Positions 10,245-37,857 of a stretch of DNA of 47,532 nt are shown here, piece by piece. How positions within the stretch are numbered: the stretch's first letter is position 1; each line of letters starts with the position of its first letter. This stretch comes from Candidatus Kaiserbacteria bacterium (GTDB lineage: Bacteria; Patescibacteriota; Minisyncoccia; Phycocordibacterales; UBA2100), in assembly GCA_016867375.1 (NCBI GenBank), contig VGJQ01000003.1, forward strand, positions 1 through 47,532, in the 5' to 3' direction. The notes under the pieces are model-generated. The model was not told the DNA's origin. It did not search any database and saw only the letters and a program-made list of their open reading frames with translations. The position numbers were made by a program, and so were the translations under genes.

Positions 10245-10253
10245 CAAAATGCC

Positions 10254-15618: not shown

Positions 15619-15682
15619 GGGAAATCTGGAGCAATCGAGCAAGAAGAAACGGCGGCGCAAAGATGTTACCTCGCCCATTTTA

Positions 15683-15745
15683 GGGCCCGTTCATAAATAA
15701 TTACCACTTTCTTGTACATAAGTATGATGTAGGGCATAATCGGGG
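15683..15745. mobile_element. degenerate or truncated copy of the MITE-like element
   Basis: The left end TA-gggcccgttcataaataa matches the left end at 40717-40737. The right end is not recognisable. Confidence 0.5.
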
Positions 15746-15771
15746 TCTGTGAGTGAAAAGGGGTAAGGTAT

Positions 15772-15847
15772 GGTGCTTATGGTGTAATGGTTAGCACTAC
15801 AGCTTGTGGAGCTGTCAGTTCCGGTTCAAATCCGGATAGGCACCCCA
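15772..15847 (+). tRNA. tRNA-His (anticodon GTG) with encoded G-1 and CCA
   Basis: Acceptor gtgctta/taggcac, anticodon stem acagc/gctgt with loop ttgtgga, T-arm tccgg-ttcaaat-ccgga. An extra 5' G lies opposite discriminator C, and CCA follows. Confidence 0.85.
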
Positions 15848-15956
15848 ATATATAGAAATTGCAGAAATGAAGAGAATTGTGCCTACTTTTTGTTAAGGAG
15901 GTGTCTTTTTGTATAATGAAATAAGTGTTTTGCAGGTTTATCACGGGGAGGAGGAG

Positions 15957-16157
15957 ATGCTCCATGCGTTCCTGAAAAAGCTCGGGATGGTCGCCCTGAT
16001 CTCATATGTGATCGAGATCCTGATGTTTCTCGTACTGTGGCAGTTGATGGGATATGCGTTTTGGGATGCGGCCAAGATATCCTGGCTCACATCTTGGCCA
16101 ATACTGCCACTGATCCCCGTAGCCATCTACTTTGTGAAAAAAAGATACCGCGGATGA
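15957..16157 (+). CDS. small membrane protein
   Basis: 66-aa ORF with 2 TM segments. The ATG is preceded by GGAGGAG. Confidence 0.5.
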   Translation: MLHAFLKKLGMVALISYVIEILMFLVLWQLMGYAFWDAAKISWLTSWPILPLIPVAIYFVKKRYRG

Positions 16158-16193
16158 CAATGGTGATTGTTGTCTGCGGTGTCGTTTTTTGTA

Positions 16194-16802
16194 TTACTTC
16201 GGTTCCACGAGGCGCTGCTGTGCGTATCGCAGAGCAAGCAGGGAGGTGCCTAGTATGATGATACTTAAGACGATTTGCTGCGAGAGTGAAAGTGGCTTAA
16301 ACGCTTCTCCCACATAAGCACCGATCAGTACCACCGCAAACACCCATATAAATGCGCCGATCGTATTGATCGTCAAAAAACGCGGATAGGGGACGCGGAG
16401 CGTGCCAGCGGTGATGAGTGTGGGTATCGCAAGGCCAAATCCCATGGTGAGCTTCGAGAGGATAATGATCTGTATGTCGAATCGTTTGAATCGACGCTCG
16501 ACACGGTCGAGGTCTTGGGGCTCAAATCCGAAGAAATGACCCCATTTTTGTGCAAACGTGCGCGTCCCAAATCGGCCGACGAGATACCAGCAGGTATCGG
16601 AGCTTACGTCTGCCGCGAGGAGGGTGAGGTACATAGGCCAAAACGCGGCGGCACCGATCGACCAGAGGAGTCCGCCGGCCATCATCGCGATCGTCCCCTC
16701 AAAGAAGCACGCGAAGAACAAAAGCGCATATTTTGAAGTATCAATGAAGGTCAATATGTCAGCCAGTACGGATGATTCCATAGTGTGTATTTCATAGTAC
16801 AC
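16194..16802 (-). CDS. DedA family membrane protein
   Basis: 202-aa polytopic ORF, a paralog of 10427-11071. Confidence 0.7.
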   Translation of the reverse strand: MYYEIHTMESSVLADILTFIDTSKYALLFFACFFEGTIAMMAGGLLWSIGAAAFWPMYLTLLAADVSSDTCWYLVGRFGTRTFAQKWGHFFGFEPQDLDRVERRFKRFDIQIIILSKLTMGFGLAIPTLITAGTLRVPYPRFLTINTIGAFIWVFAVVLIGAYVGEAFKPLSLSQQIVLSIIILGTSLLALRYAQQRLVEPK

Positions 16803-16863
16803 TATAGCAAGTGTGGCGTAGTGAACGCGATGTGCCGTACCTTTATGGTGATATACTTACGGA

Positions 16864-17070
16864 ATGGAAGATCAGGAACTAGCTCGCCGACTCGATGAGA
16901 TGATGGCAAAGCTCGACGCCGTCTATGCTTCGTCTGAAAAGACGCGCAAGCTGTTCGTGGCGATGATTGTGATAGCCATTATCGCTTTTGTGCTTCCTTT
17001 GATCGGACTGCTCTTTGCGGTACCTGCGTTTCTCTCGACATACGACAGTATCGCGAATATCGGCATGTAG
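16864..17070 (+). CDS. small membrane protein
   Basis: 68-aa ORF with one long hydrophobic segment. Confidence 0.4.
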   Translation: MEDQELARRLDEMMAKLDAVYASSEKTRKLFVAMIVIAIIAFVLPLIGLLFAVPAFLSTYDSIANIGM

Positions 17071-17119
17071 CCACCCTATTTATTGTTTATCATTATTATT
17101 TATAATCACATCATTCATT

Positions 17120-17938
17120 ATGGAAGACATGAATCAGCGAAAAGATTTACACATTCATCCGCCGCAGGTGATTGTCACGCTCGCTGCCGTGGCACTCGGC
17201 ATGCTCGCACTCTTTCTCCTCATACTTACGGTGAGCGAGTTGCGCGGGTACAAATATATCGGTGCAGGCATCAGTCCGACCAATACGATCTCCGTTTCGG
17301 GAGAGGGTGAGGTATTTGCGGTGCCCGACACGGGCGAATTTAGCGTGACCATCCAAGAAGAGGCAAAAGAAGTCGCGAAGGCGCAGGATGAAATGGCAAA
17401 GAAGGCAAATGCAATCATGGCGTATCTCAAAGGTGCGGGTGTTGAGGAGAAAGACATCAAGACCACCGACTACAACGTATCTCCGCGATATGAATGGACG
17501 CAGGGTATCTGCACAGGTGGCTATTGTCCGCCCGGCAAACAAAATCTCATCGGATTCCAGGCTTCCGAGACGATCAATGTAAAGGTGCGTGACACGCAGA
17601 AAGCTGGTGAACTCCTCTCGGGAGTCGGTGGCAAGGGCGCTTATCAGGTGAGTGGTCTCTCATTTACGATCGACGACGAAGATGCTCTCAAGGCAGAGGC
17701 GCGCGACAAGGCGATCGAGCAGGCAAAGGAGAAGGCTGATGTACTCGCCAAGTCGCTTGGCGTGTCGATCGTGCGCGTCGTTGGCTTCTATGAAAATGAA
17801 GGAGGTTATCCCACTCCGATGTATGCGCGCGCGGATATGGCTATGGGCGGCAGTATGGAAAAGGCTGTTGTACCGGAGATCGCTGTAGGGCAGAACAAAA
17901 TCATCTCCAATGTTAACGTGACCTACGAGATCAGATAA
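17120..17938 (+). CDS. SIMPL/DUF541-family secreted protein
   Basis: TM anchor followed by ISVSGEGEV.AVPD...GFQASETINVKVRD...KAIEQAKEKADVLAKSLG, typical of the SIMPL family. Confidence 0.7.
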   Translation: MEDMNQRKDLHIHPPQVIVTLAAVALGMLALFLLILTVSELRGYKYIGAGISPTNTISVSGEGEVFAVPDTGEFSVTIQEEAKEVAKAQDEMAKKANAIMAYLKGAGVEEKDIKTTDYNVSPRYEWTQGICTGGYCPPGKQNLIGFQASETINVKVRDTQKAGELLSGVGGKGAYQVSGLSFTIDDEDALKAEARDKAIEQAKEKADVLAKSLGVSIVRVVGFYENEGGYPTPMYARADMAMGGSMEKAVVPEIAVGQNKIISNVNVTYEIR

Positions 17939-17947
17939 AGTAGTACG

Positions 17948-18241
17948 ATGGCCAAAAAAGACTTCGACCTAAAGATGAACGAGCGGCTCTCGCTCTTCAA
18001 ACTCCTCGCCGATCGCAATCGATACCGATGCGTCGTGCTCTTGATGCGTTCCAAGACGGGCGGATCGGTGAGGACGATCGCAGAGGCGCTCAATATGAGT
18101 CATTCGTCGACGAGCCACCTGCTCGCGGTTTTGCACGATGCGGGCATCGTCATGTACAAGAAGAGTGGGCGAGAAGTCTCATATAGCTTGGCCAAGACCC
18201 CCCAAGCAAAGCGTGTCATTAAGCTGGTGCAGGCTTCTTAG
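17948..18241 (+). CDS. ArsR/SmtB-family HTH regulator
   Basis: LFKLLADRNRYRCVVLL...TIAEALNMSHSSTSHLLAVLHDAGIV. Confidence 0.75.
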   Translation: MAKKDFDLKMNERLSLFKLLADRNRYRCVVLLMRSKTGGSVRTIAEALNMSHSSTSHLLAVLHDAGIVMYKKSGREVSYSLAKTPQAKRVIKLVQAS

Positions 18242-18639
18242 ATCTGTCGCAGAAGGTCGAGGATGTAGTGCCCAAAAATACTCACGCCGATGATGGTTGC
18301 AGAGATGGATGCGATGAGTACTGCGCCTGCCGCTACGTCCTTGGTGTCGCGTGCGTAGGGATGATATTCGGGAGAGGTGAGATCGATATCGATTTCGATC
18401 GCCGTATTTACCGCTTCGGCCGACAAGACAAATCCCGCGGCGACCACAAGCAGCATCCAATCGAGGTATGAGATGTGAAAATAGAGACCCGCTATTACCG
18501 CGACGACCAAAATGGCGATATGTATCCACGCGTTGTGGGTCGTTTTCAGGAATATCCAGATGCCGCGTCCTGCATGGACGAAGCCTTTTGCTCGTTTGAT
18601 GATAGAAAATGGTTCGACACCACGCCCCTGTTCTTCCAT
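18238..18639 (-). CDS. dgkA: diacylglycerol/undecaprenol kinase DgkA family
   Basis: 3-TM protein with EAVNTAIE and DTKDVAAGAVL motifs. Confidence 0.75.
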   Translation of the reverse strand: MEEQGRGVEPFSIIKRAKGFVHAGRGIWIFLKTTHNAWIHIAILVVAVIAGLYFHISYLDWMLLVVAAGFVLSAEAVNTAIEIDIDLTSPEYHPYARDTKDVAAGAVLIASISATIIGVSIFGHYILDLLRQI

Positions 18640-18757
18640 GCCGGATAGTATACCACCAGGCGATAACTCTTGACTTTTTGCTTCGTTTTGCTATTATTGC
18701 AATCAAGCCCCGCGAGGGGTTTTAAAAATGCCAATTTTGGCGCTAATATAGACACCT

Positions 18758-19051
18758 ATGGCAAACCGCATCGTTCAATACGTAAAAGACACCCGGGGCG
18801 AACTCCATCACGTCGCCTGGCCTACACAGCACCAGACGATCGTGTACACGATTCTCATTGCCGCAGTCTCTGTATTCATCGCGCTCTACCTCGGACTCTT
18901 CGACTTTTTCTTTACGACCAGTCTCGCCAAGGGTTTGAACACTCTTCCGCGCACCTCCCCGATAGAGGTCACGCAGCAGCCGATACAGGTGACCCCGGAG
19001 GCAATTCCCACATTCGACACCAGTTTGGGTGGGACTCCGACTAACAACTAA
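18758..19051 (+). CDS. secE: preprotein translocase subunit SecE with C-terminal extension
   Basis: YVKDTRGELHHVAWPT followed by a TM helix. It lies immediately upstream of nusG. Confidence 0.8.
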   Translation: MANRIVQYVKDTRGELHHVAWPTQHQTIVYTILIAAVSVFIALYLGLFDFFFTTSLAKGLNTLPRTSPIEVTQQPIQVTPEAIPTFDTSLGGTPTNN

Positions 19052-19078
19052 AAACTATCAACTAACACACCCTCTTTT

Positions 19079-19624
19079 ATGGCACGACAAACACATGGTA
19101 GCGAGAGACAGTGGTATGCAGTCCATACCTATTCAGGATATGAAGACGCGGTTGCGCGCAATCTCAAACAGCGTATCGATTCTTTTGGAATGCAGGAACA
19201 GATTTTCCAGGTGGTAGTCCCGATCGAAAAGAAGATCAAGATCAAAAACGGCCGCAAGACCGAGATCAAGGAAAAGATCTTCCCGGGCTACGTGCTTGTC
19301 GACATGATCGCGACCGACGATGCGTGGAGTGTCGTGCGCAACACGCCCCAGGTCACCGGATTCGTCGGCACCGCCAATCAGGCAGTGCCGCTGGCACAGG
19401 CAGAGGTGGACAAGATCCTCAAGCGCGCCGGTGGTGACACGGTCCGTCATGCGATCGATCTCGCGGCAGGCGAGGCGGTCGTCATCATCGATGGACCGTT
19501 TAAAGACCTCGAGGGTAAGGTAGGGGAGGTCGACGAAGAGCGCGGCAAGGTCAAAGTCATGGTCCCGATGTTTGGCCGCGAGACTCCCGTAGAGCTCGAA
19601 GCCGACCAGGTGCAGAGGGTTTGA
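19079..19624 (+). CDS. nusG: transcription antitermination factor NusG
   Basis: WYAVHTYSGYE NGN domain and a KOW motif (GPFKDLEGKV). Confidence 0.9.
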   Translation: MARQTHGSERQWYAVHTYSGYEDAVARNLKQRIDSFGMQEQIFQVVVPIEKKIKIKNGRKTEIKEKIFPGYVLVDMIATDDAWSVVRNTPQVTGFVGTANQAVPLAQAEVDKILKRAGGDTVRHAIDLAAGEAVVIIDGPFKDLEGKVGEVDEERGKVKVMVPMFGRETPVELEADQVQRV

Positions 19625-19625
19625 C
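19599..19625 (+). repeat. 27-nt exact direct repeat, copy 1 (3' end of nusG including the stop)
   Basis: aagccgaccaggtgcagagggtttgac, identical to 21528-21554. Confidence 0.95.
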
Positions 19626-19710
19626 GAAAGTTGTCTGTAAGGGTAACCTGACGATGGCTGATTTCGGCTACCCGGCGCTGGCGCCGGTTCACTGATGAAC
19701 GGAGACCGAT

Positions 19711-19992
19711 ATGACCCTAATGGTTCAAACTTCTGATGGAAATGGAGTTGAGGCACGATTTACCCACAGTTGCCCTACGTCTCTTATGTGTGATGGTGTG
19801 CAAATAGGGGACGTTGAGATTCCGCTCGAAGATTTTGTCGCGATGGCAGTGCACTTTCTTTCCGGCGGCTTCTTCGACTGGAATAATGGCGAAACTCCTT
19901 CCTCCGTAAATGAAGCACTCACTACGTTGTTTGCGCGATATTATTGGATCGACGGGAGATGGGTACTCAAAAAAGACGCCACTGTGTCATAG
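19711..19992 (+). CDS. hypothetical protein
   Basis: 93-aa ORF followed by a strong hairpin plus T-tract at about 20013-20057. Confidence 0.45.
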   Translation: MTLMVQTSDGNGVEARFTHSCPTSLMCDGVQIGDVEIPLEDFVAMAVHFLSGGFFDWNNGETPSSVNEALTTLFARYYWIDGRWVLKKDATVS

Positions 19993-20046
19993 CTGTTTCC
20001 TTGTTTAGTTAACCCCGACCCCGCAGTAACCATCTGTTAAGGGTCG

Positions 20047-20075
20047 GGGATTTTTCTTTGGTGAAATGGTGTAAT
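20047..20075 (+). promoter_or_regulatory. extended -10 promoter (TGGTGTAAT) within a 24-nt repeat
   Basis: gggatttttctttggtgaaatggt is identical to 20574-20597. The -10 ends 8 nt before the ATG at 20084. Confidence 0.5.
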
Positions 20076-20083
20076 GAGTGGGT

Positions 20084-20377
20084 ATGGGAGATATAGCAAT
20101 ATTGGTCGAAAAAGCGCGGCCGATCTTCAAAAAATACGGCTTTCGCAAGGTCGGTGTATTTGGGTCGCGTGCGCGGGGTGATAATCGCCCCGACAGCGAT
20201 GTTGATTTACTCTTTTCCGACAGCGGACATCCGCTTGGTTTTAGCCAACTTCTCGATGCTGAAGAAGAATTGAAGCAGGCACTGGGTGCAGAAGTCGATC
20301 TCGTGCCGGACACCACAGTCGTTGCGCGTATGCGGCCGGGGATTAAACACGATCTCAAGATTATTTATGAAGGATAG
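20084..20377 (+). CDS. mntA: MNT-type nucleotidyltransferase antitoxin
   Basis: GVFGSRARGDNRPDSDVDLL is a GSxxRGx(n)SDxD motif. Confidence 0.8.
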   Translation: MGDIAILVEKARPIFKKYGFRKVGVFGSRARGDNRPDSDVDLLFSDSGHPLGFSQLLDAEEELKQALGAEVDLVPDTTVVARMRPGIKHDLKIIYEG

Positions 20378-20495
20378 CAAGGTGTACGCCGATCTTATTA
20401 TCGCGGCGTGCAAAAAGGTCTCTGATTTTATCGCAGGATTCACGAAAGAAGACTTCATGCACATTCAACTTGAATGTCAAAAGTCTGACTTTTGA
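20367..20495 (+). pseudogene. HepT (DUF86/HEPN) toxin, N-terminal 42 codons only
   Basis: ATGA overlap with the MNT gene. MKDSKVYADLIIAACKKVSDFIAGFTKEDF looks like a DUF86 N-terminus, but it lacks the RNxxxH region. The stop lies inside palindrome P3. Confidence 0.65.
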
Positions 20496-20499
20496 CATT
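20473..20499. repeat. perfect 27-nt palindrome P3 (aatgtcaaaagtc-t-gacttttgacatt)
   Basis: 13-nt arms around a 1-nt centre, read directly. Confidence 0.95.
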
Positions 20500-20573
20500 G
20501 GGCTCTACAAGGCAGGGCAAACGCATTAAAAATATGCCTTGAAATCACAAGATATTTTCAATGATGCATTACA

Positions 20574-20602
20574 GGGATTTTTCTTTGGTGAAATGGTATA
20601 CT
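20574..20602 (+). promoter_or_regulatory. extended -10 promoter (TGGTATACT) within a 24-nt repeat
   Basis: Same 24-mer as 20047-20070. The -10 ends 6 nt before the ATG at 20609. Confidence 0.5.
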
Positions 20603-20608
20603 AGCTGC

Positions 20609-21016
20609 ATGGGACAAGGACTGGCTTTGACGCAGACACAACAAGACGAACTTCGAAAGCTCGGGACCGTTTTGTGCTATCTGCATGGTTCTGTTGCCAC
20701 TGGTAAGGCGGGGCGGGAGAGCGATGTTGATATCGCGGTACTCTTCGATCGTGCGCCGACGGATTTGGTGGGTACCACGACGGCCGTTGTCCGCGCACTG
20801 CAAGGTTTTGTGCCCGAGCGTGAGATGGATGTGGCGATCCTCAATCAAGCAACGCCGCTCTTGATGCAAACGGTCGCAGTCCATGGCAAGCTTCTTTTTG
20901 AACGATCGATCGGCGACGGACTTTTATTCCAGATCCGTGCAATGCATGAATACGAATCGTCGCGGCACATCGTCCGCATCGGACGTCGCCTTGCTCTCGC
21001 ACGTGCTGGCCTATGA
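20609..21016 (+). CDS. mntA: MNT-type nucleotidyltransferase antitoxin
   Basis: LHGSVATGKAGRESDVDIAVL motif. 4-nt overlap with the downstream HepT gene. Confidence 0.8.
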   Translation: MGQGLALTQTQQDELRKLGTVLCYLHGSVATGKAGRESDVDIAVLFDRAPTDLVGTTTAVVRALQGFVPEREMDVAILNQATPLLMQTVAVHGKLLFERSIGDGLLFQIRAMHEYESSRHIVRIGRRLALARAGL

Positions 21017-21432
21017 CTGACCTCGCACAAGAACTCATCGCCGAAAAGATTACAAAATGCGCCGGGGCGCTCGCGGATCTCAAGCGCTATCGAGAAGTCG
21101 GTACGCTTGAATACTTGCGCGCCACCCCCGATATATATTTTGCAGTATGTTATCGTTTTCTCACCGCCATCGAATCACTGTTTGATCTCGGACAGTTCAC
21201 CCTTGCCGATGTGGGCGTGCGCGCCGAGAGTCAGCGCGAGGTCCCGGTATTGCTCGCCAAACACACTATCATCACGGACGATCTCGCAGATCGATTTGTT
21301 CGGATGTACGGATTCCGCAATCGACTTGCGCACGGGTACGACTCCTTGAGCGATGAGAAGGTCGCTGAATACCTTGCAAAGCATCTGGACGACATTGAGT
21401 CACTGCTGACGGTTTTTCAAAAAGGTATGTAG
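21013..21432 (+). CDS. hepT: HepT (DUF86/HEPN) RNase toxin
   Basis: FRNRLAHGY matches the RNxxxHxY HEPN motif. Confidence 0.8.
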   Translation: MTDLAQELIAEKITKCAGALADLKRYREVGTLEYLRATPDIYFAVCYRFLTAIESLFDLGQFTLADVGVRAESQREVPVLLAKHTIITDDLADRFVRMYGFRNRLAHGYDSLSDEKVAEYLAKHLDDIESLLTVFQKGM

Positions 21433-21449
21433 TAGTAGCGAATATGTAC

Positions 21450-21480
21450 AAGCCAAGCGTCGCTTGGCTTTTTGTGTTTG
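21450..21480 (+). terminator. intrinsic terminator
   Basis: aagccaagc-gtc-gcttggctt followed by ttt. Confidence 0.65.
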
Positions 21481-21527
21481 TGGCATAATCTAAGGCGTAA
21501 TCCGTAAGGCGTCGCCTTACGGATTGT

Positions 21528-21554
21528 AAGCCGACCAGGTGCAGAGGGTTTGAC
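21528..21554 (+). repeat. 27-nt exact direct repeat, copy 2 (orphan nusG 3' end)
   Basis: Identical to 19599-19625. It is preceded by the 12-bp-stem hairpin at 21499-21525. Confidence 0.95.
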
Positions 21555-21618
21555 AGAGGTAAAAATACCTGCTTTATTTGCACTAGGTTAGAACGTGATA
21601 CATAAGGGGGAGGTTGGC

Positions 21619-22227
21619 TTGTTGGACACGACATTCACGGAGCATGCGTTCAAGCGAGTGAGTGAGCGTCTTCATCTCTCGCCTGAGGAAGTCGCACAGC
21701 TTCTTAATGAGGACAAATATGTTCCTCTCGGGAAGGATGGTTCTTCCAAGAGAGTACATAAGCTGTTTTACAGCGAACCGGACTCATTCTGGTTTGTGGC
21801 GGTGCAGGATGAAGTGACTAAGGAAGTAGTTACGGTGTTGCCAGTCGATTATCACCATCGTTGGAAGGTTTCGGGTGATGCGCTGAGTTTCGCTCGCGCG
21901 AGGACTCGTGGCGAACAGATATCATTACCACACCCAATGCTTCCCGGACCAGAGACGGAGTCGGGGCCAGAGATGGTGACGCTTCGATTTTTGGGGCAGA
22001 TAATCAACCAGAAATGTAAGACACGTACCGTTGGTCTCGGTAGGATGCGGTATGAGTTGAGACATCTTGATCTGGTCAGTTATGACTCGGCGGTGCAGAA
22101 ATTTCTCAGGGACCAGCTTGAGGAAGTACCTTTCGTAGAAGGAGAATTTCTTGAGGAAATACATGCCTACTACGGAAAAGGCGGAAACAAAAAGTACATG
22201 AACCTTCAACTTAAAACGCTACTCTAG
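21619..22227 (+). CDS. hypothetical protein, N-terminal DUF4258-like region
   Basis: TFTEHAFKRVSERLHLSPEEV resembles the H-A-x-x-R..R-x-I-s motif of DUF4258-type toxins, from memory. A TTG start 5 nt after GGGGAGG is preferred over the GTG at 21595. Confidence 0.45.
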   Translation: MLDTTFTEHAFKRVSERLHLSPEEVAQLLNEDKYVPLGKDGSSKRVHKLFYSEPDSFWFVAVQDEVTKEVVTVLPVDYHHRWKVSGDALSFARARTRGEQISLPHPMLPGPETESGPEMVTLRFLGQIINQKCKTRTVGLGRMRYELRHLDLVSYDSAVQKFLRDQLEEVPFVEGEFLEEIHAYYGKGGNKKYMNLQLKTLL

Positions 22228-22304
22228 CTAGGGGGTAGCGTTTTTTCATACACAAGCGGTGGGCCCTTGAAATCCCCGGCCATTCCTGTATAGTGTCCCG
22301 ACAT

Positions 22305-22727
22305 ATGGCAAAAGAAGTCACCAAGATCATAAAGCTCCAGCTCCCAGCGGGGGCTGCCACGCCGGCTCCTCCGGTAGGTACCGCACTTGGCCCGGCGGGC
22401 GTCAATATCGCCGAATTCGTCAAGCAGTTCAATGATCAGACCCGCCCCCAGGCAGGCTCGATCCTCCCGGTCTTGATGCATGTGTACAAGGACCGCACGT
22501 TTACTTTTGTGGTCAAGAAGCCACCGGCGAGCCAGCTCGTACTCAAGGCCGCAGGTATCGAGAAGGGTTCGTCCAAGCCGCACAGTCAGAAAGTAGGCAA
22601 GATCACCAAGGTGCAAGTCGAAGCGATCGCCAAGGACAAGATGGAAGACATGAATGCTCACGATGTAGCACATGCCGCATCCGTCATCGCCGGTACTGCA
22701 CGCAGTATGGGCGTGGACGTGGTCTAG
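22305..22727 (+). CDS. rplK: ribosomal protein L11
   Basis: [26 protein letters not shown] signature. Confidence 0.9.
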
Positions 22728-22786
22728 ATTTGAATTTAAAAGAAAGAAAACGCCGAGTCGAGTGACCCGGCGTTTTTGATTTTTTA

Positions 22787-22844
22787 GAGCCCGTTCATAC
22801 GTGGCGTTCACAAAGAACGGGTACGTCATTTGTGGACGAGCCCT
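22787..22844. mobile_element. 58-bp internally deleted MITE-like element flanked by TA/TA
   Basis: Its ends gagcccgttcat... and ...atttgtggacgagccct match the 91-bp copy at 40719-40809. It appears to lack the segment between two aacggg repeats. Confidence 0.7.
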
Positions 22845-23947
22845 TAGACGCGTTCCGCGATCCGTACGTTGGTGTATTCGGGATCATCGGTGACTTCTTT
22901 GATCACCTTGATCCAGTCAGGGATTTTCACCTGAGTATTTTCCTCGGTGAGTTCCACCTCAAGCATGTAGAGCGTCTTTCCGCCTCGTATGGGGATCATG
23001 TCGTATTCCAGATACTGCCCCTCATACGGAAAACAAACCCGCGTTTTGCGTATGAGTTTCTTTGACGGATCACGTTGGGTGGCGAACAGTGTAGCATACT
23101 CACGTGCGCTGATGACGCGCTCAATCTCCTCGTTTTTGCCCGGACCAAGATATTTTTTGTCCGTCCGAAAGTAGAGAAAATTGGCACCATCCTGTCCTCG
23201 TTTGCGGATACGCGATGTGACCGCCGGATCAGATGAAAGTAGGTATGCTTGCTCGATCAGGATCATCTCATGCGGCATAGGCCAATGATTCGCTTCAACA
23301 TAGTGGCAGAGGAACTTACGTTCAATCTCAATTGGTACGGGAATACCAAGGAGTGCGTATATTTCGTGCTCCAGTCGCGCGAGTTTGCCGGCGAAGTCGG
23401 TCGAATTGTCGATCTCGCGCCAATGCGGCGCCCCGATCCAAACCCTTCGGGTCCGATCATCCAATTCCCGTGCCTGCGCGATGGTCTCACGTCTCGCCGC
23501 GTTGTTTGCAAGCGTGTAGTGTTGCTCTGCGCCGTTGGCGGCGGTCGTCAAATGGATGACGCCTTGATAGCCGTCCCGCGCCTCGACGTGGCTTCTGATC
23601 CCGTTTCTCCGCAGTGCTTGCAGGTATATTTTCACGTCATCGACGTATGCTTTGGATGTGGCTTTGCCGCGATCGCAGAACAGAACGGGTTTCAGCTTCG
23701 ATCGCGATTTCGCCGCGCGCAGCATGACATCCTCAAGATGTTTGGCTGTTCCGATGACCGCTGTCTGGAATTCGAGTGTCGGCCATGGTGCCGGCCATAT
23801 GTTGCCGTTCATGAGCAGTGTTGCCGCTTCGGGCACTACGATCGGATAGAACCCTTTCTGGGAAAGCTGTTCGACCATATGGGCGAGTGCGGTGGTCTTG
23901 CCTCCGCAAGGGCCGCCATCGAAACAGATTTTGGGTACGTGTATCAT
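22844..23947 (-). CDS. P-loop NTPase (AAA_28-like) fused to a CYTH domain
   Basis: N-terminal GGPCGGKTT Walker A. The C-terminal half begins with the EIERKFL ExExK CYTH signature. Confidence 0.65.
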   Translation of the reverse strand: MIHVPKICFDGGPCGGKTTALAHMVEQLSQKGFYPIVVPEAATLLMNGNIWPAPWPTLEFQTAVIGTAKHLEDVMLRAAKSRSKLKPVLFCDRGKATSKAYVDDVKIYLQALRRNGIRSHVEARDGYQGVIHLTTAANGAEQHYTLANNAARRETIAQARELDDRTRRVWIGAPHWREIDNSTDFAGKLARLEHEIYALLGIPVPIEIERKFLCHYVEANHWPMPHEMILIEQAYLLSSDPAVTSRIRKRGQDGANFLYFRTDKKYLGPGKNEEIERVISAREYATLFATQRDPSKKLIRKTRVCFPYEGQYLEYDMIPIRGGKTLYMLEVELTEENTQVKIPDWIKVIKEVTDDPEYTNVRIAERV

Positions 23948-24016
23948 TTTGCACCTTTCCGTTTCAAAGAACCTGTTTCGACCATATCACAATTCATAAA
24001 TATCTGACAGTGTGGT

Positions 24017-25708
24017 ATGAAGTACAATACTTGTATGGATACGGCACAGGGGATCAGGGAGGCAATCACAGGAGCGCTCGGGCAGCTCGGTATTTCTGCT
24101 GCGGCAGAAACGATCACCCTTGAATTTCCGGCCGATATGGCCCATGGAGACTATGCGACCAATGTCGCGCTTGTGTTTGCCAAGCAGGTAGGGATGGCGC
24201 CACGCGACATGGCCACCATGATCGTCGAAAAACTCGGCACTATCGATGGTGTTGCACGAATCGATATTGCTGGCCCCGGCTTCATCAATTTCACCCTCTC
24301 ATCGCAGGCGCTCGCCATTTCACTCAATGAAGCACTGATACAAGACGCGTGGGGTGCGAGCGATGTATGTCCCGACGAGACGGTGATGGTCGAATACACC
24401 GACCCCAATCCGTTTAAAGCATTTCATATCGGGCACCTCATGAGCAACACGATCGGAGAGTCGATTGCGCGCCTTTTGCAATTCTCGGGAGCCAAAGTCA
24501 TCCGCGCCAACTACCAGGGAGATCTCGGCGTACACGTGGCGTGCGCGATCTGGGGGATCCAGAAGCTCGGCATTCATCCCGAAAGCGCCGATGAGTTTGG
24601 TACTGCGTACGCAGCAGGCGCGACCGCATACAAGGAAGATCCTGTTGCCAAAAAGGAGATAGACGAGATCAATACAAAGCTCTACGAGCGCTCCGACCCT
24701 GCACTCAATATTCTCTATGACACCGGGCGTACCACATCACTCGAGGCATTTGAGCGGATTTACGGTATCCTGGGCACACATTTTGATCACTATTTTTTCG
24801 AGAGCCAGACAGCGCCGATCGGTAAGAATATCGTCATTACACACCCGGATATCTTTCCCGAATCTGAAGGTGCACGCGTCTTTAAAGGGGAGGAGCACGG
24901 TCTCCATACGCGTGTCTTTATCAACGCCAAAGGCATCCCGACCTACGAAGCCAAAGAGCTTGGACTCGAAAAACTCAAGAAAGATTTGTACCCCGAGACC
25001 AAGCTTCTCATTATAGTGACTGGCAATGAAGTCGTCGATTTCTTCCGCGTCGTCAAAAGAGCGCTCGAGCTCACCTATCCGCACATTGCCGACGAGATGG
25101 TGCACGTGCCACATGGCATGATGAAGCTTCCGACGGGCAAGATGTCCTCGCGCACAGGAGATGTCATCACAGGCGAATCACTCTTGCGAGAGCTTGCCGC
25201 AGCGGCCAAAGTGCGTGTCACCGAAAGCCGTGCGGGAGATACGGAGAAGCTATCACAAGAAGTGGCTGTGGCTGCGATCAAATACCAAATCCTCAAACAG
25301 GATTCTAGTAAAGATATTGTGTTTGATCGTGAGCGTTCGCTCTCGCTCGAAGGTGACTCCGGACCATACTTGCAATACACCTATGCGCGCACCGGTGCCG
25401 TGGTAGGGAAGGCACATATGCAGGGGATCGAGTCACGCGTTGACATGAACGCCGAGCCTACCGAAGTTGTTCGACTTATCCATCGTTTTCCGGCAGTCGT
25501 CGAGCAAGCCGCGCGCGATCTCAAGCCCCACCTCATCACACAGTATCTCCTTTCGCTCGCAAGTGCTTTTAATAGCTGGTATGCGCAGGTGCAAATCATC
25601 GATACTTCGGAGCATGCGCCGCACAAGGTGGCGGTGACGGCAGCGGTCAATCGCACCCTCAAAAACGGCCTCTGGATTCTCGGCATCCCCGCGCCGGAGA
25701 AGATGTAG
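24017..25708 (+). CDS. argS: arginyl-tRNA synthetase
   Basis: HIGH-type AFHIGHLMS, class I core, C-terminal anticodon-binding domain. An alternative start lies at 24035. Confidence 0.9.
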   Translation: MKYNTCMDTAQGIREAITGALGQLGISAAAETITLEFPADMAHGDYATNVALVFAKQVGMAPRDMATMIVEKLGTIDGVARIDIAGPGFINFTLSSQALAISLNEALIQDAWGASDVCPDETVMVEYTDPNPFKAFHIGHLMSNTIGESIARLLQFSGAKVIRANYQGDLGVHVACAIWGIQKLGIHPESADEFGTAYAAGATAYKEDPVAKKEIDEINTKLYERSDPALNILYDTGRTTSLEAFERIYGILGTHFDHYFFESQTAPIGKNIVITHPDIFPESEGARVFKGEEHGLHTRVFINAKGIPTYEAKELGLEKLKKDLYPETKLLIIVTGNEVVDFFRVVKRALELTYPHIADEMVHVPHGMMKLPTGKMSSRTGDVITGESLLRELAAAAKVRVTESRAGDTEKLSQEVAVAAIKYQILKQDSSKDIVFDRERSLSLEGDSGPYLQYTYARTGAVVGKAHMQGIESRVDMNAEPTEVVRLIHRFPAVVEQAARDLKPHLITQYLLSLASAFNSWYAQVQIIDTSEHAPHKVAVTAAVNRTLKNGLWILGIPAPEKM

Positions 25709-25849
25709 AAAATCGCCTCACTTTTTATCTCCTGAGACCATATGTTTGCAGGCATTGCATTCCAGTACACAGGAATATGATCATTCATTTTAAAATTAAA
25801 TAGGCACCCAATTTTTGTTGGGCGCCTATTTTTCATGTCCGAAATCTGT

Positions 25850-26071
25850 TCAGCGCTTGCGGTCATACACCGGTGGATCCAGATAAACGTCATGGTCGTC
25901 CTGGAACTTTGCCGCACATTCGCGGCAGCAAAAACGGCATGGGACGACTTCGCCATCACCAGAAGACGACAGTGTTTTGAAATCAAGCCCATTATCGTCG
26001 ATCGGCTTCTTACACTGGTCGCATTTGTCACGTTTTGAGGCGTTCACGGTCTTTTCCCTTTCATCGTACAA
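25850..26071 (-). CDS. small zinc-ribbon protein
   Basis: CDQC...CRFCCREC cysteine pairs. A hairpin at about 25798-25835 lies between it and argS. Confidence 0.5.
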   Translation of the reverse strand: MYDEREKTVNASKRDKCDQCKKPIDDNGLDFKTLSSSGDGEVVPCRFCCRECAAKFQDDHDVYLDPPVYDRKR

Positions 26072-26164
26072 TTACGTCTGCTGTAGAGGATAACCCAGCT
26101 CACATGCTGAAGCAACAGTTTTTGATGCCTCGCCGTTGGGCGTTTCCTTTGCTACGATACGGCA

Positions 26165-29100
26165 ATGAGTGCTGAAAAAGAGCCACAAAAGTCAGAAGTC
26201 GCCAAGCGTGAAGAGGATGTCCTCGCTTTTTGGGATACGCACGAGATTTTTCAAAAGACCGTCGAGCGTGAACCTAGTAAGGGTGAATACGTCTTTTATG
26301 ACGGTCCGCCGTTTGCCACGGGCTTGCCGCATTATGGGCACCTGCTCCAGAGCTTCGTCAAAGACGTGATCCCGCGCTACAAGACTATGCAGGGCTATCG
26401 CGTGGAGCGCCAATGGGGATGGGATTGTCATGGATTGCCGATCGAAAACATCGTTGAGAAAGAGCTCGGCACCAAGTCGAAGAAAGATATCATGCAGATG
26501 GGGGTCAAGAAGTTTAATGATTTGTGCCGCAAACGCATCTTTACCTTCATCGGCGAATGGGTGCGCATCATCCCGCGCATCGGACGCTTCGTCGATATGA
26601 AGCATGCATATCGCACGATGGATTTTTCATACATGGAAAGCGAGTGGTGGGCGTTTAAGACGCTCCATGAAAAAGGCCTTATCTACGAAGACTATCGCAG
26701 CATGCACATCTGTCCGCGCTGTGAGACCACACTTTCTCAAGGCGAAGTGGCGGAAGGATATAAGGATGTGAAGGACCTATCGGTGACGGTGAAGTTTAAA
26801 GTGAAGCCGGGGCAAAAGATCGGTGAGTGGGAAGTGCCGGAAAATACGTACCTCCTCGCATGGACGACTACGCCATGGACTCTGCCGGGGAATGTGGCTC
26901 TTGCTATCAATAGCACATTCGTATATTTAGCGGTTAAAGCGTTCAGTGACAACACTGACAACACATATCTTTTATTGAAAGATGCCTTGCTTGATCATTT
27001 ACTAAAAGGTGAAGGGGCACTTAGATATTCTCAATTATTTTCCAAAGATGACCATCATTGGTTGGGGGGAGCAAAAGACACTCATTCTGAAAATATAAAA
27101 GAAATACCCGGACAAGAAATGCTCGGCCTCGAATACGCACCCCTCTTCGACTACTACGCCAAGGACGAAAAGCTCAAGAATCGCGAGAACGGATGGAAGG
27201 TGTACGAGGCTGATTTTGTGACGACCGATACGGGCACTGGTATCGTGCATATTGCGCCGGCATTCGGGGCCGACGACATGGCATTAGGCAAGCGCGAAAA
27301 CTTGCCCTTTGTACAGCACGTAAAGATGGATGGCACGTTTGCGCCCGAAACGGGCGAATTCGCCGGGATCGACCTCAAACCGCGCGCGAAAGGCAAGCCC
27401 GAAGAAATACGAGAAGCCGATCTTGCTATCGTGCGGCATCTCGAAGAAAAAGGGTTGGTATTTTCACACGAGAAGTACGAACACGCCTACCCGCACTGCT
27501 GGCGATGCGATACCGCACTCCTCAACTACGCGACGTCGTCGTGGTTTGTCGCGGTGGAAAAGATGAAGCCGACTCTGCTCGAGGCGGCGCAGAGCATCAA
27601 TTGGTCGCCGGAGCACATCAAAGAGGGGAGATTTGGCAAATGGCTCGAGGGTGCACGTGATTGGTCGATCAGCCGCCAGCGCTTTTGGGCCAATACGATT
27701 CCCGTGTGGCGCTGCGACACGTGCAAGAGAGACCACGTCTTCGGCTCCGCGGCAGAGCTCGCGCAGGCGAGCGGCTCGACCGTCTCCGATCTCCACAAAG
27801 ATGTCGTCGATGAGATAGCGTTCAAATGTAAAAAGTCAGACTTGCTACAATCACAGGAGTGTGATGGGATTGCTCGGCGTGTGCCCGATGTGCTCGATAC
27901 GTGGTTTGATAGCGGTTCCGTGCCGTTTGCTACAGAGCACTACCCTCATGAAAATGCCGAACGGTTTGTTGCGCGGATGCCTGCCGACTTCATCGGCGAA
28001 GCGCAGGATCAGACGCGCGCGTGGTTCTACTATCTCCATGTGCTCTCGGGCGGACTCTTCGGTAAAGCGGCATTCAAAAATTGCATTGTCACGGGGCTCG
28101 TCCTCGCCGAAGACGGTAAGAAGATGTCCAAGAAGCTCAACAATTATCCCGATCCAATGACGATCGTCGATAGGTACGGCGCGGATGCATTACGTCTCTA
28201 CGTGCTTTCGGCGCCGATCGTGCAGGGCGAAAATCTCAATTTCTCCGAGCATGGTGTCGATGAAGCGCTCAAAAAAAACATCGGTCGCCTGCACAACGTG
28301 CTCTCGTTTTACCAACTGTATGCCCCCTCGACGAAGCTCGGGGCAGGGGATGTGCTGCGCGGCCACACGAGTACCCATCTGCTCGATCAATGGATCCTTT
28401 CTCGCCTCGCACTCTTCACACGAGAGGTGACTGCTGGTATGGAGGCGTATCAGCTTGATGCTGCGTCGCGTCCGATCCCCGGATTTATCGACGATCTGTC
28501 CGTATGGTATATACGCCGCTCGCGTGACCGTTTTAAGGCAACCGATGAAACTACCTCATCATCGCTTGCCGACAAGCAAGCTGCGTTAGCGACTTTACGC
28601 TACGTACTCCACACGCTCGCACGCGTTATCGCGCCCATCATGCCGTTTTATGCCGAGTACCTCTTCCAGGCAGTGTGCGAAGATGAAGACGAAGAAAGCG
28701 TGCATATGACGATGTGGCCCGATGCCTCGCAGATGCAGTGCGACACAAATCTTCTTCTGGTGATGGAGCAGGCGCGCCGCATCGTATCCATGGCGCTGGA
28801 GGAGCGTGATAAGGCAGGTATCAAAGTGCGTCAGCCGCTCTCTCGTCTGTCGGTGTCTGCCGAGGATGCCCTCCGTTTTTCGAAAGATCTACTCGATATC
28901 ATTGCAGAAGAGGTGAATGTGAAAGAAGTGTCTTCTGGCTCGGCACTTTCGCTTGATATTTCGATTACACCCGAGCTGCGTGAAGAAGGCTTCATCCGTG
29001 AATTTACGCGCTATGTGCAGCAGCGTCGCAAGGATATGCAGCTCATGCCGTCCGATGCGATCCGTCTTTTTGTGCCCGAAAACGAGGTGATCCGTCGCTC

Positions 29101-29221: not shown

Positions 29222-29276
29222 CCATACTCAAGACACAATGACACAAGTTAGACTTGTGTCTTGATATACTAAAGAG

Positions 29277-29846
29277 ATGTACCAGAAGTACTGCACCGAA
29301 GCGATCGTGCTTAGTATGCGCGAATCAGGCGAGTCCGATCAGGCGCTCGCGCTCCTCACGCGTGACTTTGGCCTGGTGTGGGCCCGGGCAGGGGCGATGC
29401 GGCGCGAGTATTCCAAGATGCGCTATTCGCTTCAGCTATATGCACACGCATCTGTCTCGCTCGTGCGTGGCAAGGCGAACTGGCGCGCGGCGGGTGCGTC
29501 GTGCAGTACGCCGGCCTTGAGAGGGGAGAGTCTGCGCGCCTTTGCGCGCATCGCGCATCTTGTGGTGCGTTTGGTCGTCGGGGAAGAGCGTAGCGACTAC
29601 CTCTTCGAAGCAGTGTTGCAGGCACATGCTTCGCTTCTGCACGCAGGAGACGAGATGATTCCGACGATCGAGATCGTCGCGGTGGCGCGTATCCTCTTTG
29701 CACTCGGGTACATCTCTGCCGAAGCGCTCGAGACGACACTCTTCGCTCACACTGCGTACTCGTTTGATCACTTGCATGAGGCAGAGATGATCCGTGACAA
29801 TCTACTCATATCTATCAATCGTGCCCTTGCCGAAACGCACCTATAG
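29277..29846 (+). CDS. recO: DNA repair protein RecO
   Basis: N-terminal OB-fold pattern TEAIVLSMRESGESD..LLTRDFG. Confidence 0.7.
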   Translation: MYQKYCTEAIVLSMRESGESDQALALLTRDFGLVWARAGAMRREYSKMRYSLQLYAHASVSLVRGKANWRAAGASCSTPALRGESLRAFARIAHLVVRLVVGEERSDYLFEAVLQAHASLLHAGDEMIPTIEIVAVARILFALGYISAEALETTLFAHTAYSFDHLHEAEMIRDNLLISINRALAETHL

Positions 29847-31867: not shown

Positions 31868-31931
31868 CTCGGTCCGCTCCTTGTAATCTCGTGATTTTGT
31901 GACGTTGCAATTCAATGCTACTCTGCCACAT

Positions 31932-37852: not shown

Positions 37853-37857
37853 TAAAT

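Follow-up and report, generated by a model that had tools for sequence, protein, structure and literature searches.

A probable long-lived cargo slot between nusG and a pseudo-copy of its 3' end in a Candidatus Kaiserbacteria genome

To our knowledge, the movement of chromosomal toxin-antitoxin (TA) cassettes has never been well explained, and mobility genes are usually not carried. Chromosomal TA modules have a known role in stabilising dispensable DNA, as in the superintegron and in ICE stabilisation. The genomes of CPR bacteria are tiny and poor in classical mobile elements, and their accessory content is variable. Transposons usually duplicate some 2-15 bp of their target, and IS200/IS605 elements make no target duplication. 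In Prochlorococcus, partial tRNAs are scattered, along with degraded elements, through islands built by tycheposons (bioRxiv 10.1101/2020.12.28.424599). The microcin H47 island of E. coli is small, has extensive imperfect direct repeats and encodes no recombinase, and it relies on host functions to excise and integrate, crossing over where short segments are identical (PMC3191183).

The DNA analysed here (the window, 47,532 nt in full) comes from a Candidatus Kaiserbacteria (CPR) bacterium. An earlier note on it had reported a TA island between nusG and rplK, flanked by a perfect 27-nt repeat that includes the nusG stop. The repeat, AAGCCGACCAGGTGCAGAGGGTTTGAC, indeed occurs in exact copies at 19599-19625 and 21528-21554 only; a scan of the window at up to three mismatches gave no further match. 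None of 100 dinucleotide-preserving shuffles contained it, in agreement with the view that an exact 27-mer is beyond chance, and similarity does end at the repeat edges: the left copy lies between CTCG and GAAAG, the right copy between TTGT and AGAGG. The right copy starts 1.9 kb downstream of the nusG stop, for a repeat unit of 1929 bp, and is non-coding, with a TAA in the nusG frame at 21527-21529. We call it psi, for pseudo-copy of the nusG 3' end. The features of the slot and its neighbours are as follows.

19079-19624, plus strand: nusG, intact, 181 aa; Pfam NusG and KOW; length and C-terminus as in 80 relatives
19599-19625, plus strand: left 27-mer copy; last 8 codons of nusG, TGA stop and one C
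19711-19992, plus strand: orf93, predicted ORF, small accessory gene; a single homologue, 51% identity
20013-20059, plus strand: T1, terminator-like GC-rich hairpin and T-run; folding energy -17.8 kcal/mol
20047-20073, plus strand: inner 27-nt repeat, copy 1; T1 tail and -10-like TGGTGTAAT, upstream of MNT1
20078-20377, plus strand: MNT1, MntA-type nucleotidyltransferase; Pfam NTP_transf_2/Polbeta
20367-20495, plus strand: 42-codon ORF in the toxin position; overlaps the MNT1 stop and terminates inside palindrome 1
20473-20499, no strand: palindrome 1, perfect 13-1-13, AATGTCAAAAGTC T GACTTTTGACATT
20574-20600, plus strand: inner 27-nt repeat, copy 2; upstream of MNT2
20609-21016, plus strand: MNT2, MntA-family antitoxin (type VII TA); NCBIfam MntA 65.8 bits, cutoff 60
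21013-21432, plus strand: HepT2, HepT-family RNase toxin; Pfam HepT-like 1.6e-21, NCBIfam HepT 71.4 bits, cutoff 60
21450-21480, plus strand: T2, intrinsic-terminator-like hairpin and T-run after HepT2
21499-21525, no strand: palindrome 2, perfect 13-1-13, AATCCGTAAGGCG T CGCCTTACGGATT; stops 2 nt before psi
21528-21554, plus strand: right 27-mer copy, a 27-nt psi-nusG stub homologous to longer psi in L083, L087 and L094
21550-21578, plus strand: possible orf210 promoter, read by eye; TTGACA (last 5 nt of psi and A), 17 nt, TTTATT
21595-22227, plus strand: orf210, accessory gene of a large uncharacterised family (764 representative clusters)
22267-22294, plus strand: promoter-like site for rplK; TTGAAA, 16 nt, TATAGT, conserved in L087 and L094
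22305-22727, plus strand: rplK (ribosomal protein L11); Pfam Ribosomal_L11_N and Ribosomal_L11

Pfam confirms the identities of secE, nusG and rplK. MNT2 carries a GS...DxD motif, HepT2 carries RNRLAH (Rx4-6H) at residue 102, and the HepT2 start overlaps the MNT2 stop by 4 nt (21013-21016); in scores, motifs, gene order and overlap, the pair is a predicted type VII MntA/HepT system. MNT1, with an NCBIfam MntA score of 43.9 bits against the 60-bit cutoff, is an orphan or degraded module. The cargo had been described as a 93-aa ORF, an MNT with a truncated HepT, and an MNT with HepT. This holds for orf93, for MNT1 (its MntA score below cutoff) and for the MNT2/HepT2 pair, but the supposed truncated HepT, the 42-codon ORF, has no HepT match by Pfam, NCBIfam, hhalign against the HepT profile or PDB sequence search. 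No Pfam, NCBIfam or PADLOC family was found for orf93, whose homologue lies on an unrelated AT-rich contig (L093). The further 210-aa ORF placed between the right repeat and rplK is present as orf210. It too has no Pfam, NCBIfam or PADLOC family; its start codon is uncertain (homologues start about 12 codons later), and its AF2 model (pLDDT 74.7) has no significant fold match in the PDB.

The slot contains nested repeats. The inner repeat copies are 26/27 identical and bracket the MNT1 cassette, and palindromes 1 and 2 (folding energies -13.3 kcal/mol, z = -4.2, and -22.8 kcal/mol, z = -5.5) sit at the two ends of the MNT2/HepT2 segment; their sequences are unrelated and are not inverted copies. 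The composite content, two MNT cassettes each behind the same 27-nt sequence, the first with a cut-off second gene, speaks against the 1.9-kb island as a single unit. The 3' half of T1 also occurs in L083 and in Hainich contigs L096-L099, with GCAGAGGGTCGGGGATTTTCTTTTGTT common to L083 and L096. At the psi edge, the TTGACA is conserved in L083, L087 and L094, and the last bases of psi, with the following A, may act as the -35 box of orf210; the candidate promoter fails the -10 rule of the promoter scan.

The island ORFs and the larger ORFs elsewhere on the 47.5-kb contig (scanned or named by precomputed Pfam hits) gave no integrase, transposase or other recombinase, and because no recombinase is encoded, the 1.9-kb content is a non-autonomous islet. 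As in an integrative island, direct repeats derived from the nusG 3' end flank the insert and nusG is intact at 181 aa, but neither the island ORFs nor the other ORFs scanned in the window encode a tyrosine or serine recombinase. As in an H47-type island, the flanking direct repeats have short identity blocks and there is no recombinase of its own. A DDE transposon, or any other that makes a target duplication, was rejected on the lack of a transposase and of an inverted repeat joining the island ends. An integron gene cassette was likewise discarded: the window has no integrase domain, and the palindromes are 27 nt and perfect, with near-miss boxes only (GCCTTAC/GTAAGGC; attC judged by eye), whereas attC sites span 57-141 nt and have R''/R' boxes. 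Among pilus genes, the window encodes PilM, and its PilN match is sub-threshold.

The nusG-rplK junction had been called conserved, with a comparison of its spacing in related genomes suggested as a check. In most of 72 relatives the gap is indeed a tight 10-100 nt, but in about a dozen it is widened by unrelated insertions of 0.35-2.4 kb. The relatives with the tight junction lack orf210 as well, and in none of the relatives compared does orf210 directly follow nusG. Three related lineages, L083, L087 and L094, have a psi in the same place as the window, directly upstream of an orf210 homologue and ahead of rplK. These copies are longer (about 53 nt in L083, 74 in L087 and 85 or more in L094, against 27 in the window) and partly decayed. 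The right edge, GTTTGAC before A, is identical in all four lineages, and the left edge is different in each.

The bracketed genes also differ. L083, whose NusG is 96% identical in amino acids to that of the window, holds a 104-aa protein (orf104) that is membrane-spanning by eye only and has no Pfam family; L087 holds a truncated IS256-family transposase and an MntA, the MNT1 homologue (73% aa), which adjoins psi; L094 holds ParE and Phd/YefM; and the window holds orf93 and two MntA/HepT-type modules. The orf104 unit of L083 sits where the window has orf93 with its terminator. The nearest homologues of MntA/HepT2 lie on Hainich contigs L095/L096, between repeats of some 51 nt (46/51) and adjoining a nusG-like fragment.

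Though non-coding, psi is 83-93% identical between lineages, and the adjacent spacer is 49-71% identical. In L094, orf210 has an in-frame stop and psi is kept. The psi of L083 and that of L094 are slightly nearer to their own nusG than to any other sequence compared, and an AGG codon is common to the window psi and its own nusG, the other copies reading CGG or CG-. With 87-90% identity, as in L083 and L094, a 27/27 match has a probability of only about 2-6%. These comparisons suggest that psi has been homogenised with nusG, on a signal of a handful of sites in short copies. The L083 psi is a mosaic, its left part like its own nusG and its tail the ancestral TTTGAC, which is a suggestive hint of hybrid att sites and nothing firmer.

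We conclude, with a probability of about 0.62, that the stretch between nusG and orf210 has long served as a cargo slot, bounded by the nusG 3' end and by psi. The right 27-mer copy of the window is a truncated old psi around a composite, recombinase-less islet, not the fresh scar of one mobile island. Most likely, a circular DNA that bore a copied nusG 3' end entered nusG by recombination, either site-specifically or through a short stretch of identity (Campbell-type), which would have kept nusG intact and left a second copy of its end downstream. Later gain and replacement of cargo by recombination at short common sequences would then have put different genes in each lineage, and psi would have been shortened from its left side, to 27 nt in the window genome. 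At present, the 1.9-kb content is composite and joins orf93 and its terminator to a degraded MNT cassette and an intact MntA/HepT one, and the TA modules plausibly guard the repeat-flanked insert against loss when the repeats recombine. The circular intermediate, the enzyme, the TA-based stabilisation and the use of the promoter are parts of a mechanism that we infer entirely from the anatomy of the locus. On the other side, neither a circular form nor an empty site nor an active recombinase was seen in the assembled sequence, and the exact 27-mer is absent from three public collections, so that a search there for a sister strain with one copy came up empty. If the 1929-bp unit were excised precisely, the expected circle junction would read pal2-GT-27mer-GAAAGTTG.

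The same layout recurs at other genes. In the window, the 3' end of a class II aaRS gene is followed by a PemK/MazF toxin and a 159-nt in-frame pseudo-end, and the 3' end of tatD by an asparaginase and a pseudo-end; in L177, the tatD 3' end is followed by a HicA toxin with a neighbour and a 24/28-nt pseudo-end. Both window pseudo-ends keep the ORF, with mostly conservative amino-acid changes relative to the live gene, and the aaRS copies are 69% identical, with one 20-nt identical block. A scan of 97 insertion-bearing junctions (94 in species-representative relatives) gave one pseudo 3' end outside the window genome. At 1 of 94 other junctions, the process is not general among Kaiserbacteria, a rarity that is awkward for a purely host-driven homologous mechanism and so counts against the cargo-slot reading, as do the aaRS copies, whose divergence is too great for ordinary RecA recombination except by a crossover in the 20-nt block. 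A more general proposal, which we consider unlikely, is that TA pairs and small cargo of this lineage move as minimal recombinase-less circles that carry an essential-gene 3'-end fragment as portable homology. These would integrate at about 20-27 nt of identity into genes such as nusG, aaRS and tatD, each time restoring the gene with a pseudo-end left behind, and would be kept because their loss frees the toxin.

Several other explanations have to be set against the long-lived slot. To the earlier note, the 27-mers looked like attL/attR or a long target duplication of a single 1.9-kb unit. Its broader idea, a recombination-made duplication of the nusG 3' end around horizontally acquired cargo with nusG left intact, agrees with what we find, but its reading of the 27-mers does not, as L083, L087 and L094 carry longer, decayed psi around unrelated cargo. 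The note had itself named a 27-mer pair around unrelated cargo in relatives as evidence against it, and the psi of these three lineages are in substance that. The sharp edges it stressed are real, but the right one is the natural end of nusG abutting orf210 and the left one a truncation point that varies by lineage. We therefore regard it as decidedly unlikely that the 1929 bp came in recently at the nusG 3' end as one mobile TA island, with 27-mers that are att sites of an integrase supplied in trans or since lost, or else a very long target duplication. In its favour are the 27/27 identity, the sharp edges and a repeat that stops 1 nt past the nusG stop as if an element restored the gene, and the AGG that the window psi has in common with its own nusG would fit recent recombination at the site. 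Beyond the psi of the related lineages, this explanation has to contend with the composite content (an internal repeat and a cut-off gene), with the lack of a recombinase and of terminal inverted repeats, and with a length of 27 bp, well beyond the usual transposon duplication. Weak further evidence comes from the Logan unitigs of SRR16108666, which are unbranched across both 27-mer copies and so hint that no abundant empty-site variant was present in that sample. Misassembly, also raised in the note, can be given next to no credence, whether as a chimeric join or as a strain variant placed in tandem at a common k-mer. The repeat length is near usual k-mer sizes and the same contig holds several other diverged duplications, but a second, k=31 unitig-based assembly of SRR16108666 recovers both junctions and the interior at 100% identity (L001, window 15767-21520; L082, window 21496-29842, the break between them falling in palindrome 2), and three further lineages, with other samples and assemblers behind them, show the same architecture.

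One-sided homologous replacement after DNA uptake (homology-facilitated illegitimate recombination) is rather unlikely, though several points favour it. Linear DNA anchored in nusG or in orf210/rplK would have been joined illegitimately at its other end in or near the nusG 3' end, so that psi would be either the end displaced in the recipient or a fragment co-transferred from the donor, with no need for a circle or a dedicated recombinase. Such events would explain the fixed right edge, the variable left edge, the lineage-specific cargo, the missing recombinase and the truncated genes at cassette joints; the aaRS and tatD pseudo-ends resemble real gene ends of another allele rather than random decay, and PilM with the sub-threshold PilN may be compatible with DNA uptake. 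The signature should then be widespread, yet it was seen at 1 of the 94 other junctions, and conservation of psi at the level of coding sequence is left unexplained by this model alone. It is very improbable that psi is instead kept for a function, such as promoter or 5' leader of orf210 and rplK, as a local duplication selected to save downstream expression after an insertion and not as a recombination site. In each of the four lineages, the TTGACA at its edge matches the -35 hexamer perfectly and is followed 17-19 nt on by a -10-like hexamer, and psi is better conserved than the adjoining spacer. But a promoter would use only the last 5 nt of psi, leaving conservation over 50-85 nt unexplained; the left part is freely lost (27 nt remain in the window); between orf210 and rplK lies a conserved promoter-like site for rplK itself; and L094 retains psi despite the in-frame stop in orf210.

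The locus gives one bracket, a nusG end and its pseudo-copy, around four different cargos in four lineages, with a second TA-filled bracket on the same contig at aaRS and one at tatD in a relative. If the pattern holds more widely, it would offer a testable route of gene flow into essential-gene neighbourhoods, in which duplicated gene ends recombine over short identities and TA modules guard against loss. Were minimal circles truly at work, they would be a distinct mode of TA spread in streamlined genomes with almost no classical mobile-element machinery. If the pattern fails, the locus is an ordinary decayed integration site, and the caution stays that a perfect short repeat can be an old stub.

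Compared with integrative islands at gene 3' ends, such as those of Prochlorococcus, the slot is alike in that the target gene is intact, a partial 3'-end copy marks the far side of the cargo, one site holds different cargo in each lineage, and old degraded remnants pile up in a streamlined genome. It differs in its protein-coding targets (nusG, aaRS and tatD, not tRNA), in having no integrase or integrase fragment in the examples examined here, and in its tiny units of 0.6-1.9 kb, mostly TA pairs. Transposons with target duplications, IS200/IS605-type elements and PATE elements also have inserts flanked by direct repeats, and perfect hairpin-forming palindromes are present here; unlike them, the slot has no transposase, its palindromes are mutually unrelated, and 27 bp is far over the usual duplication. 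MNT2 and HepT2 resemble type VII MntA/HepT systems in exceeding the NCBIfam cutoffs, in canonical order and stop/start overlap, and in their Rx4-6H and GS...DxD motifs, whereas the first module is degraded (MNT1 below cutoff, its partner ORF not recognisable). The role of stabilising TA modules can be extended to this slot only by analogy. With the H47 island, the slot has in common the lack of a recombinase, direct repeats that are imperfect (here in the relatives) and identity blocks of about 20-27 nt within longer diverged repeats, and parasitic, in-trans mobility is plausible here. Mobility of H47 has been demonstrated experimentally, whereas this slot is known from its sequence; the H47 repeats are not copies of essential-gene 3' ends, and the host here is an uncultured CPR bacterium.

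The 27-mer AAGCCGACCAGGTGCAGAGGGTTTGAC occurs exactly twice in the window, at 19599-19625 and 21528-21554, and the left copy takes in the final eight codons of nusG (19079-19624), its TGA stop and a single base beyond. No further copy with up to three mismatches was found in the window or in 100 shuffles, and comparison of the flanks found no similarity past either edge. The perfect repeat and its sharp edges described in the earlier note were thus borne out, as was the 210-aa open reading frame (orf210, 21595-22227) between the right repeat and rplK. Pfam confirmed the identities of secE, nusG and rplK.

Two Logan contigs of SRR16108666, possibly the window's own sample, are 100% identical to the window over 15767-21520 (L001) and 21496-29842 (L082). 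A k=31 assembly thus recovers the interior as well as both junctions, and an artefact of assembly is scarcely credible. The break between the two contigs falls inside a perfect palindrome (21499-21525) and away from the 27-mer, and neither contig branches at the 27-mer copies, which is weak evidence that an abundant empty-site variant was not assembled in SRR16108666. They end and start within the palindrome (21496-21520) with an overlap of 25 nt, not k-1, and L082 diverges from the window beyond 29842, which points to trouble with coverage or with the assembly graph at the hairpin and, near 29.8 kb, to a strain variant. Exact searches for the 27-mer in genome_contigs, metagenome_contigs and viral_contigs gave 0 matches, so that neither a sister strain nor an empty site was recovered by this route.

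Going by its NusG relatives, the window belongs to Candidatus Kaiserbacteria (Paceibacterota/CPR). The nusG-rplK junction had been called conserved, which holds for most of the 72 loci having both genes, where the gap is 10-100 nt, but not for about a dozen, which carry unrelated insertions of 0.35-2.4 kb. Some of these encode recognizable proteins:

L010, 6689-8686: RVT_1 reverse transcriptase, a weak sub-threshold bAvd-like match and a 214-aa ORF
L004, 6170-8146: a layout similar to that of L010, by eye
L018, and by eye L055: GIY-YIG nuclease
L030, and by eye L038: uracil-DNA glycosylase
L016: aldehyde dehydrogenase

The L010 insertion looks like a diversity-generating retroelement; further insertions hold ORFs without known function. 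Ungapped and local searches found no second nusG-end copy in 13 species-representative relatives with insertions at this junction. Insertions have thus occurred at this junction repeatedly, but the repeat is not a general feature of it.

Relatives that do carry a second nusG end were found solely by tracing homologues of orf210. The few close homologues lie in three contigs that share the window's architecture, each with a pseudo-copy of the nusG 3' end (psi) upstream of orf210:

L083 (GCA_016182325.1; NusG 96% identical in amino acids): nusG, a 104-aa ORF (orf104) of no family and, by eye, membrane-spanning look, a terminator, a nusG-end copy of about 53 nt, orf210 homologue, rplK
L087 (ENA ERZ27280021): truncated IS256-family transposase, a homologue of the first islet nucleotidyltransferase MNT1 (73% aa), a 74-nt nusG-end copy, orf210 homologue, rplK
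L094 (Logan SRR22388152): nusG end, genes for ParE and Phd/YefM in opposite orientation, a nusG-end copy (one indel; 85 nt or more), an orf210 homologue with an in-frame stop, rplK

The right end of psi is identical in all four genomes (...GTTTGAC then A), and its left boundary differs in each. This pattern makes the right 27-mer of the window a remnant of an old psi, the shortest one to survive; its sharp right edge is the natural nusG end abutting orf210, and its sharp left edge is a truncation point. Among these four lineages, three of them represented by short contigs, the short psi copies are 83-93% identical, live nusG ends 85-91%, and the spacer between psi and orf210 49-71%; psi is not drifting freely. 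The psi copies of L083 and L094 are slightly nearer their own nusG than any other compared sequence and have in common variants that no nusG end shows (GTCGAG for GTAGAG, and CG at an Arg codon), which speaks for common descent and partial homogenisation. In the window, psi has AGG, as does the window nusG. At the 87-90% identity seen elsewhere, a 27/27 match has a chance of about 2-6%, so recent conversion or crossover between the two window copies is likely.

Between the 27-mers, orf93 comes first and matched no family; it is followed by MNT1, by an ORF of 42 codons that overlaps the stop of MNT1, and by MNT2 and HepT2. An NTP_transf_2 domain was recognized in MNT1, which scores 43.9 bits against NCBIfam MntA, under the 60-bit cutoff. 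MNT2 and HepT2 exceed the MntA and HepT NCBIfam cutoffs, contain the expected motifs and, as a pair, are an ordinary representative of the type VII MntA/HepT family; PADLOC gave just generic nucleotidyltransferase matches for the two MNT proteins (PDC-S09/PDC-M05A). The cargo is thus much as the earlier note had listed it, except for a "truncated HepT": the 42-codon ORF showed no HepT similarity by Pfam, NCBIfam, hhalign against a HepT2-family profile or PDB phmmer, and may come from another HepT subfamily. No recombinase gene was found in the islet or among the other scanned ORFs of the contig; precomputed Pfam hits supplied the names of the genes outside the scan.

By its internal anatomy, the 1.9-kb islet is a composite, in which the following features were recognized:

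20013-20059: T1, a GC-rich terminator-like hairpin with a T-run, ending orf93
20047-20073 and 20574-20600: inner 27-nt direct repeat (26/27), made of the T1 tail and a -10-like TGGTRTA
20473-20499: perfect 13-1-13 palindrome, within which the second ORF of the first cassette terminates
21499-21525: second perfect palindrome, unrelated to the first, ending 2 nt ahead of psi

The 3' half of T1 is near-identical to the end of the orf104 unit in L083, where that sequence adjoins psi directly. Relative to L083, the window has a block of both MNT cassettes (20060-21527) between T1 and psi and lacks the left half of psi. Neither blastn nor tblastx found homology between orf93 and orf104; the flanks alone correspond. 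The inner repeat lies upstream of both MNT genes, so the first cassette is flanked. The nearest homologues of MNT2/HepT2 (83% aa), in Hainich groundwater contigs L095-L099, are preceded by the same T1 tail. In L095 and L096 the homologue is flanked by a direct repeat of local sequence of about 51 nt (46/51; L095 4493-4543 and 5655-5705) and adjoins a fragment, about 55 nt long, with similarity to the KOW region of nusG (L095 about 5600-5660). This locus lies near lepA and a PemK module and is not the nusG locus.

The T1-tail motif AGGGTCGGGGATTTTYCTTT was rejected as a widespread cassette boundary or general repeat element, with 0 viral matches and 6 in unrelated phyla. The palindromes were rejected as IS200/IS605 or PATE ends, being unrelated to each other and lacking a TnpA, and as attC sites, being too short at 27 nt and lacking an IntI. 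An Rfam scan of 18000-24000 gave no matches. Elsewhere in the window, a perfect palindrome, ATTGTCGAGGTC A GACCTCGACAAT (3286-3310), marks the exact point at which a PIF1-like helicase ORF (2807-3286) is truncated; the palindrome at 20473-20499, at the end of the ORF after MNT1, resembles it in its TGTC...GTC/GAC...GACA pattern. A palindrome near-identical to that at 3286-3310 lies at 4316-4344, with a 144-nt direct repeat (3320-3463 and 4173-4316, 92%) between the two. A LAGLIDADG-like ORF (9463-10131) sits between rplS and tRNA-Leu (10163-10245). The short motif TTTTAGRGCCCGTTCATA... occurs three times (15678-15707, 22782-22811 and 40714-40743), intergenic or at gene ends and once just past the rplK terminator; two of these sites share a 52-nt stretch with 86% identity (22796-22846 and 40760-40811).

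The orf210 family comprises 764 representative clusters at E<=1e-3, matches no Pfam family and is otherwise uncharacterised; orf210 itself was assigned to no family by Pfam, NCBIfam or PADLOC. Its members have a conserved N-terminal domain of about 100 aa, sometimes alone, with the motif HKLFYSEPDSFWFVAVQD (alignments A1/A4), and elsewhere lie after greA, near a tRNA or in other places. One of 30 members weakly matches DUF4258 (E = 0.004). The AF2 model of orf210 (pLDDT 74.7) had no significant PDB match, its top local matches being chains of the MqsR toxin, a RelBE complex and another toxin-antitoxin complex (all E > 0.1); these are weak, non-significant hints of a DUF4258/RelE-like toxin fold.

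The layout of gene 3' end, cargo and pseudo-copy of the same end recurs at other genes:

31899-33425: class II aminoacyl-tRNA synthetase (typed to class), with a 90-aa ORF and then a PemK/MazF toxin (33963-34301) behind it
34305-34463: pseudo-copy of the last ~50 codons of the synthetase (159 nt, 69% identical), in-frame with its own stop, three bases past the toxin
41833-42825: tatD, followed by an asparaginase gene (42871-43962)
44026-44100: pseudo tatD 3' end, 88% identical over 57 nt, still reading as a C-terminus with a stop
L177 (a distant relative), 4773-5397: tatD, a HicA toxin (4800-5033) on the opposite strand, a neighbouring 97-aa ORF where an antitoxin gene would sit, and a pseudo tatD 3' end (24/28 nt)

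The synthetase bracket is the same as that at nusG, again holding a TA module. The pseudo tatD end of the window reads like a real allele in its sequence. An asparaginase gene between tatD and rpsF was present in none of 75 relatives having both genes, and an exact-protein look-up returned no record, hence no independent confirmation of the tatD structure. Among 97 insertion-bearing junctions (nusG-rplK, tatD-rpsF and metRS-tatD; three in the window itself), significant pseudo-ends were found just at the window nusG, the window tatD and L177, so the signature is rare and lineage-concentrated, often with TA modules. Diverged direct repeats (37843-38033 and 40511-40703, 87%; 38848-38925 and 41638-41717, 81%) bracket an HD-domain gene, a 235-aa ORF, a minus-strand MNT-type nucleotidyltransferase (39415-39912) and small ORFs; 37843-41717 is possibly a further repeat-flanked islet between a NUDIX gene and tatD.

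We favour, with a probability of about 0.6, the view that the nusG end was duplicated long ago, when circular DNA carrying a copy of that end recombined with the chromosome. Recombination would have been site-specific or via short identity, leaving nusG intact either way; cargo would later have been swapped and accreted at short shared sequences while psi was progressively trimmed, and the present islet is non-autonomous. Recombination between the 27-mers would give the circle junction ...CGCCTTACGGATTGT-AAGCCGACCAGGTGCAGAGGGTTTGAC-GAAAGTTGTCTG, and loss of the unit the empty-site junction ...CCCGTAGAGCTCG-27mer-AGAGGTAAAAATACC; the inner repeat would give analogous junctions for the unit 20074-20600. 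Toxin-antitoxin modules are known to stabilise DNA, and they plausibly persist here as loss of a repeat-flanked insert by repeat recombination would free the toxin. Repeat-flanked inserts would then often hold TA pairs by survivorship. We think it unlikely that TA circles without an integrase use gene-end fragments as portable homology.

The earlier note had read the 27-mer pair as attL/attR or a target duplication of the TA island. The perfect, sharp-edged repeat would fit such a single element, but longer psi copies around other cargo in L083, L087 and L094 speak against it, and we now hold it to be distinctly improbable. One-sided homologous replacement after DNA uptake, with a displaced or co-transferred gene end left behind, suits the allele-like pseudo-ends but sits ill with the rarity of the signature; we regard it as rather doubtful. 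The psi edge TTGAC|A reads as a perfect -35 hexamer, with TTTATT following at a spacing of 17 nt, although the site fails the -10 rule of the scan tool. This putative -35 may explain why the right edge was never lost; a purely regulatory role for psi seems very unlikely.

The islet differs from an integrase-bearing island in having no recombinase, and from a transposon in having no transposase, no inverted ends and a repeat of 27 bp; nor is it an integron cassette. We found no direct precedent in the literature for TA cassettes between duplicated gene ends, or for such islands in CPR bacteria. The locus resembles an integration hot spot at a gene 3' end with decayed elements, such as tycheposon-built islands with their scattered partial tRNAs (bioRxiv 10.1101/2020.12.28.424599). 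It is also like the microcin H47 island, which is without a recombinase and has imperfect repeats, with recombination in short identity blocks by host functions (PMC3191183).
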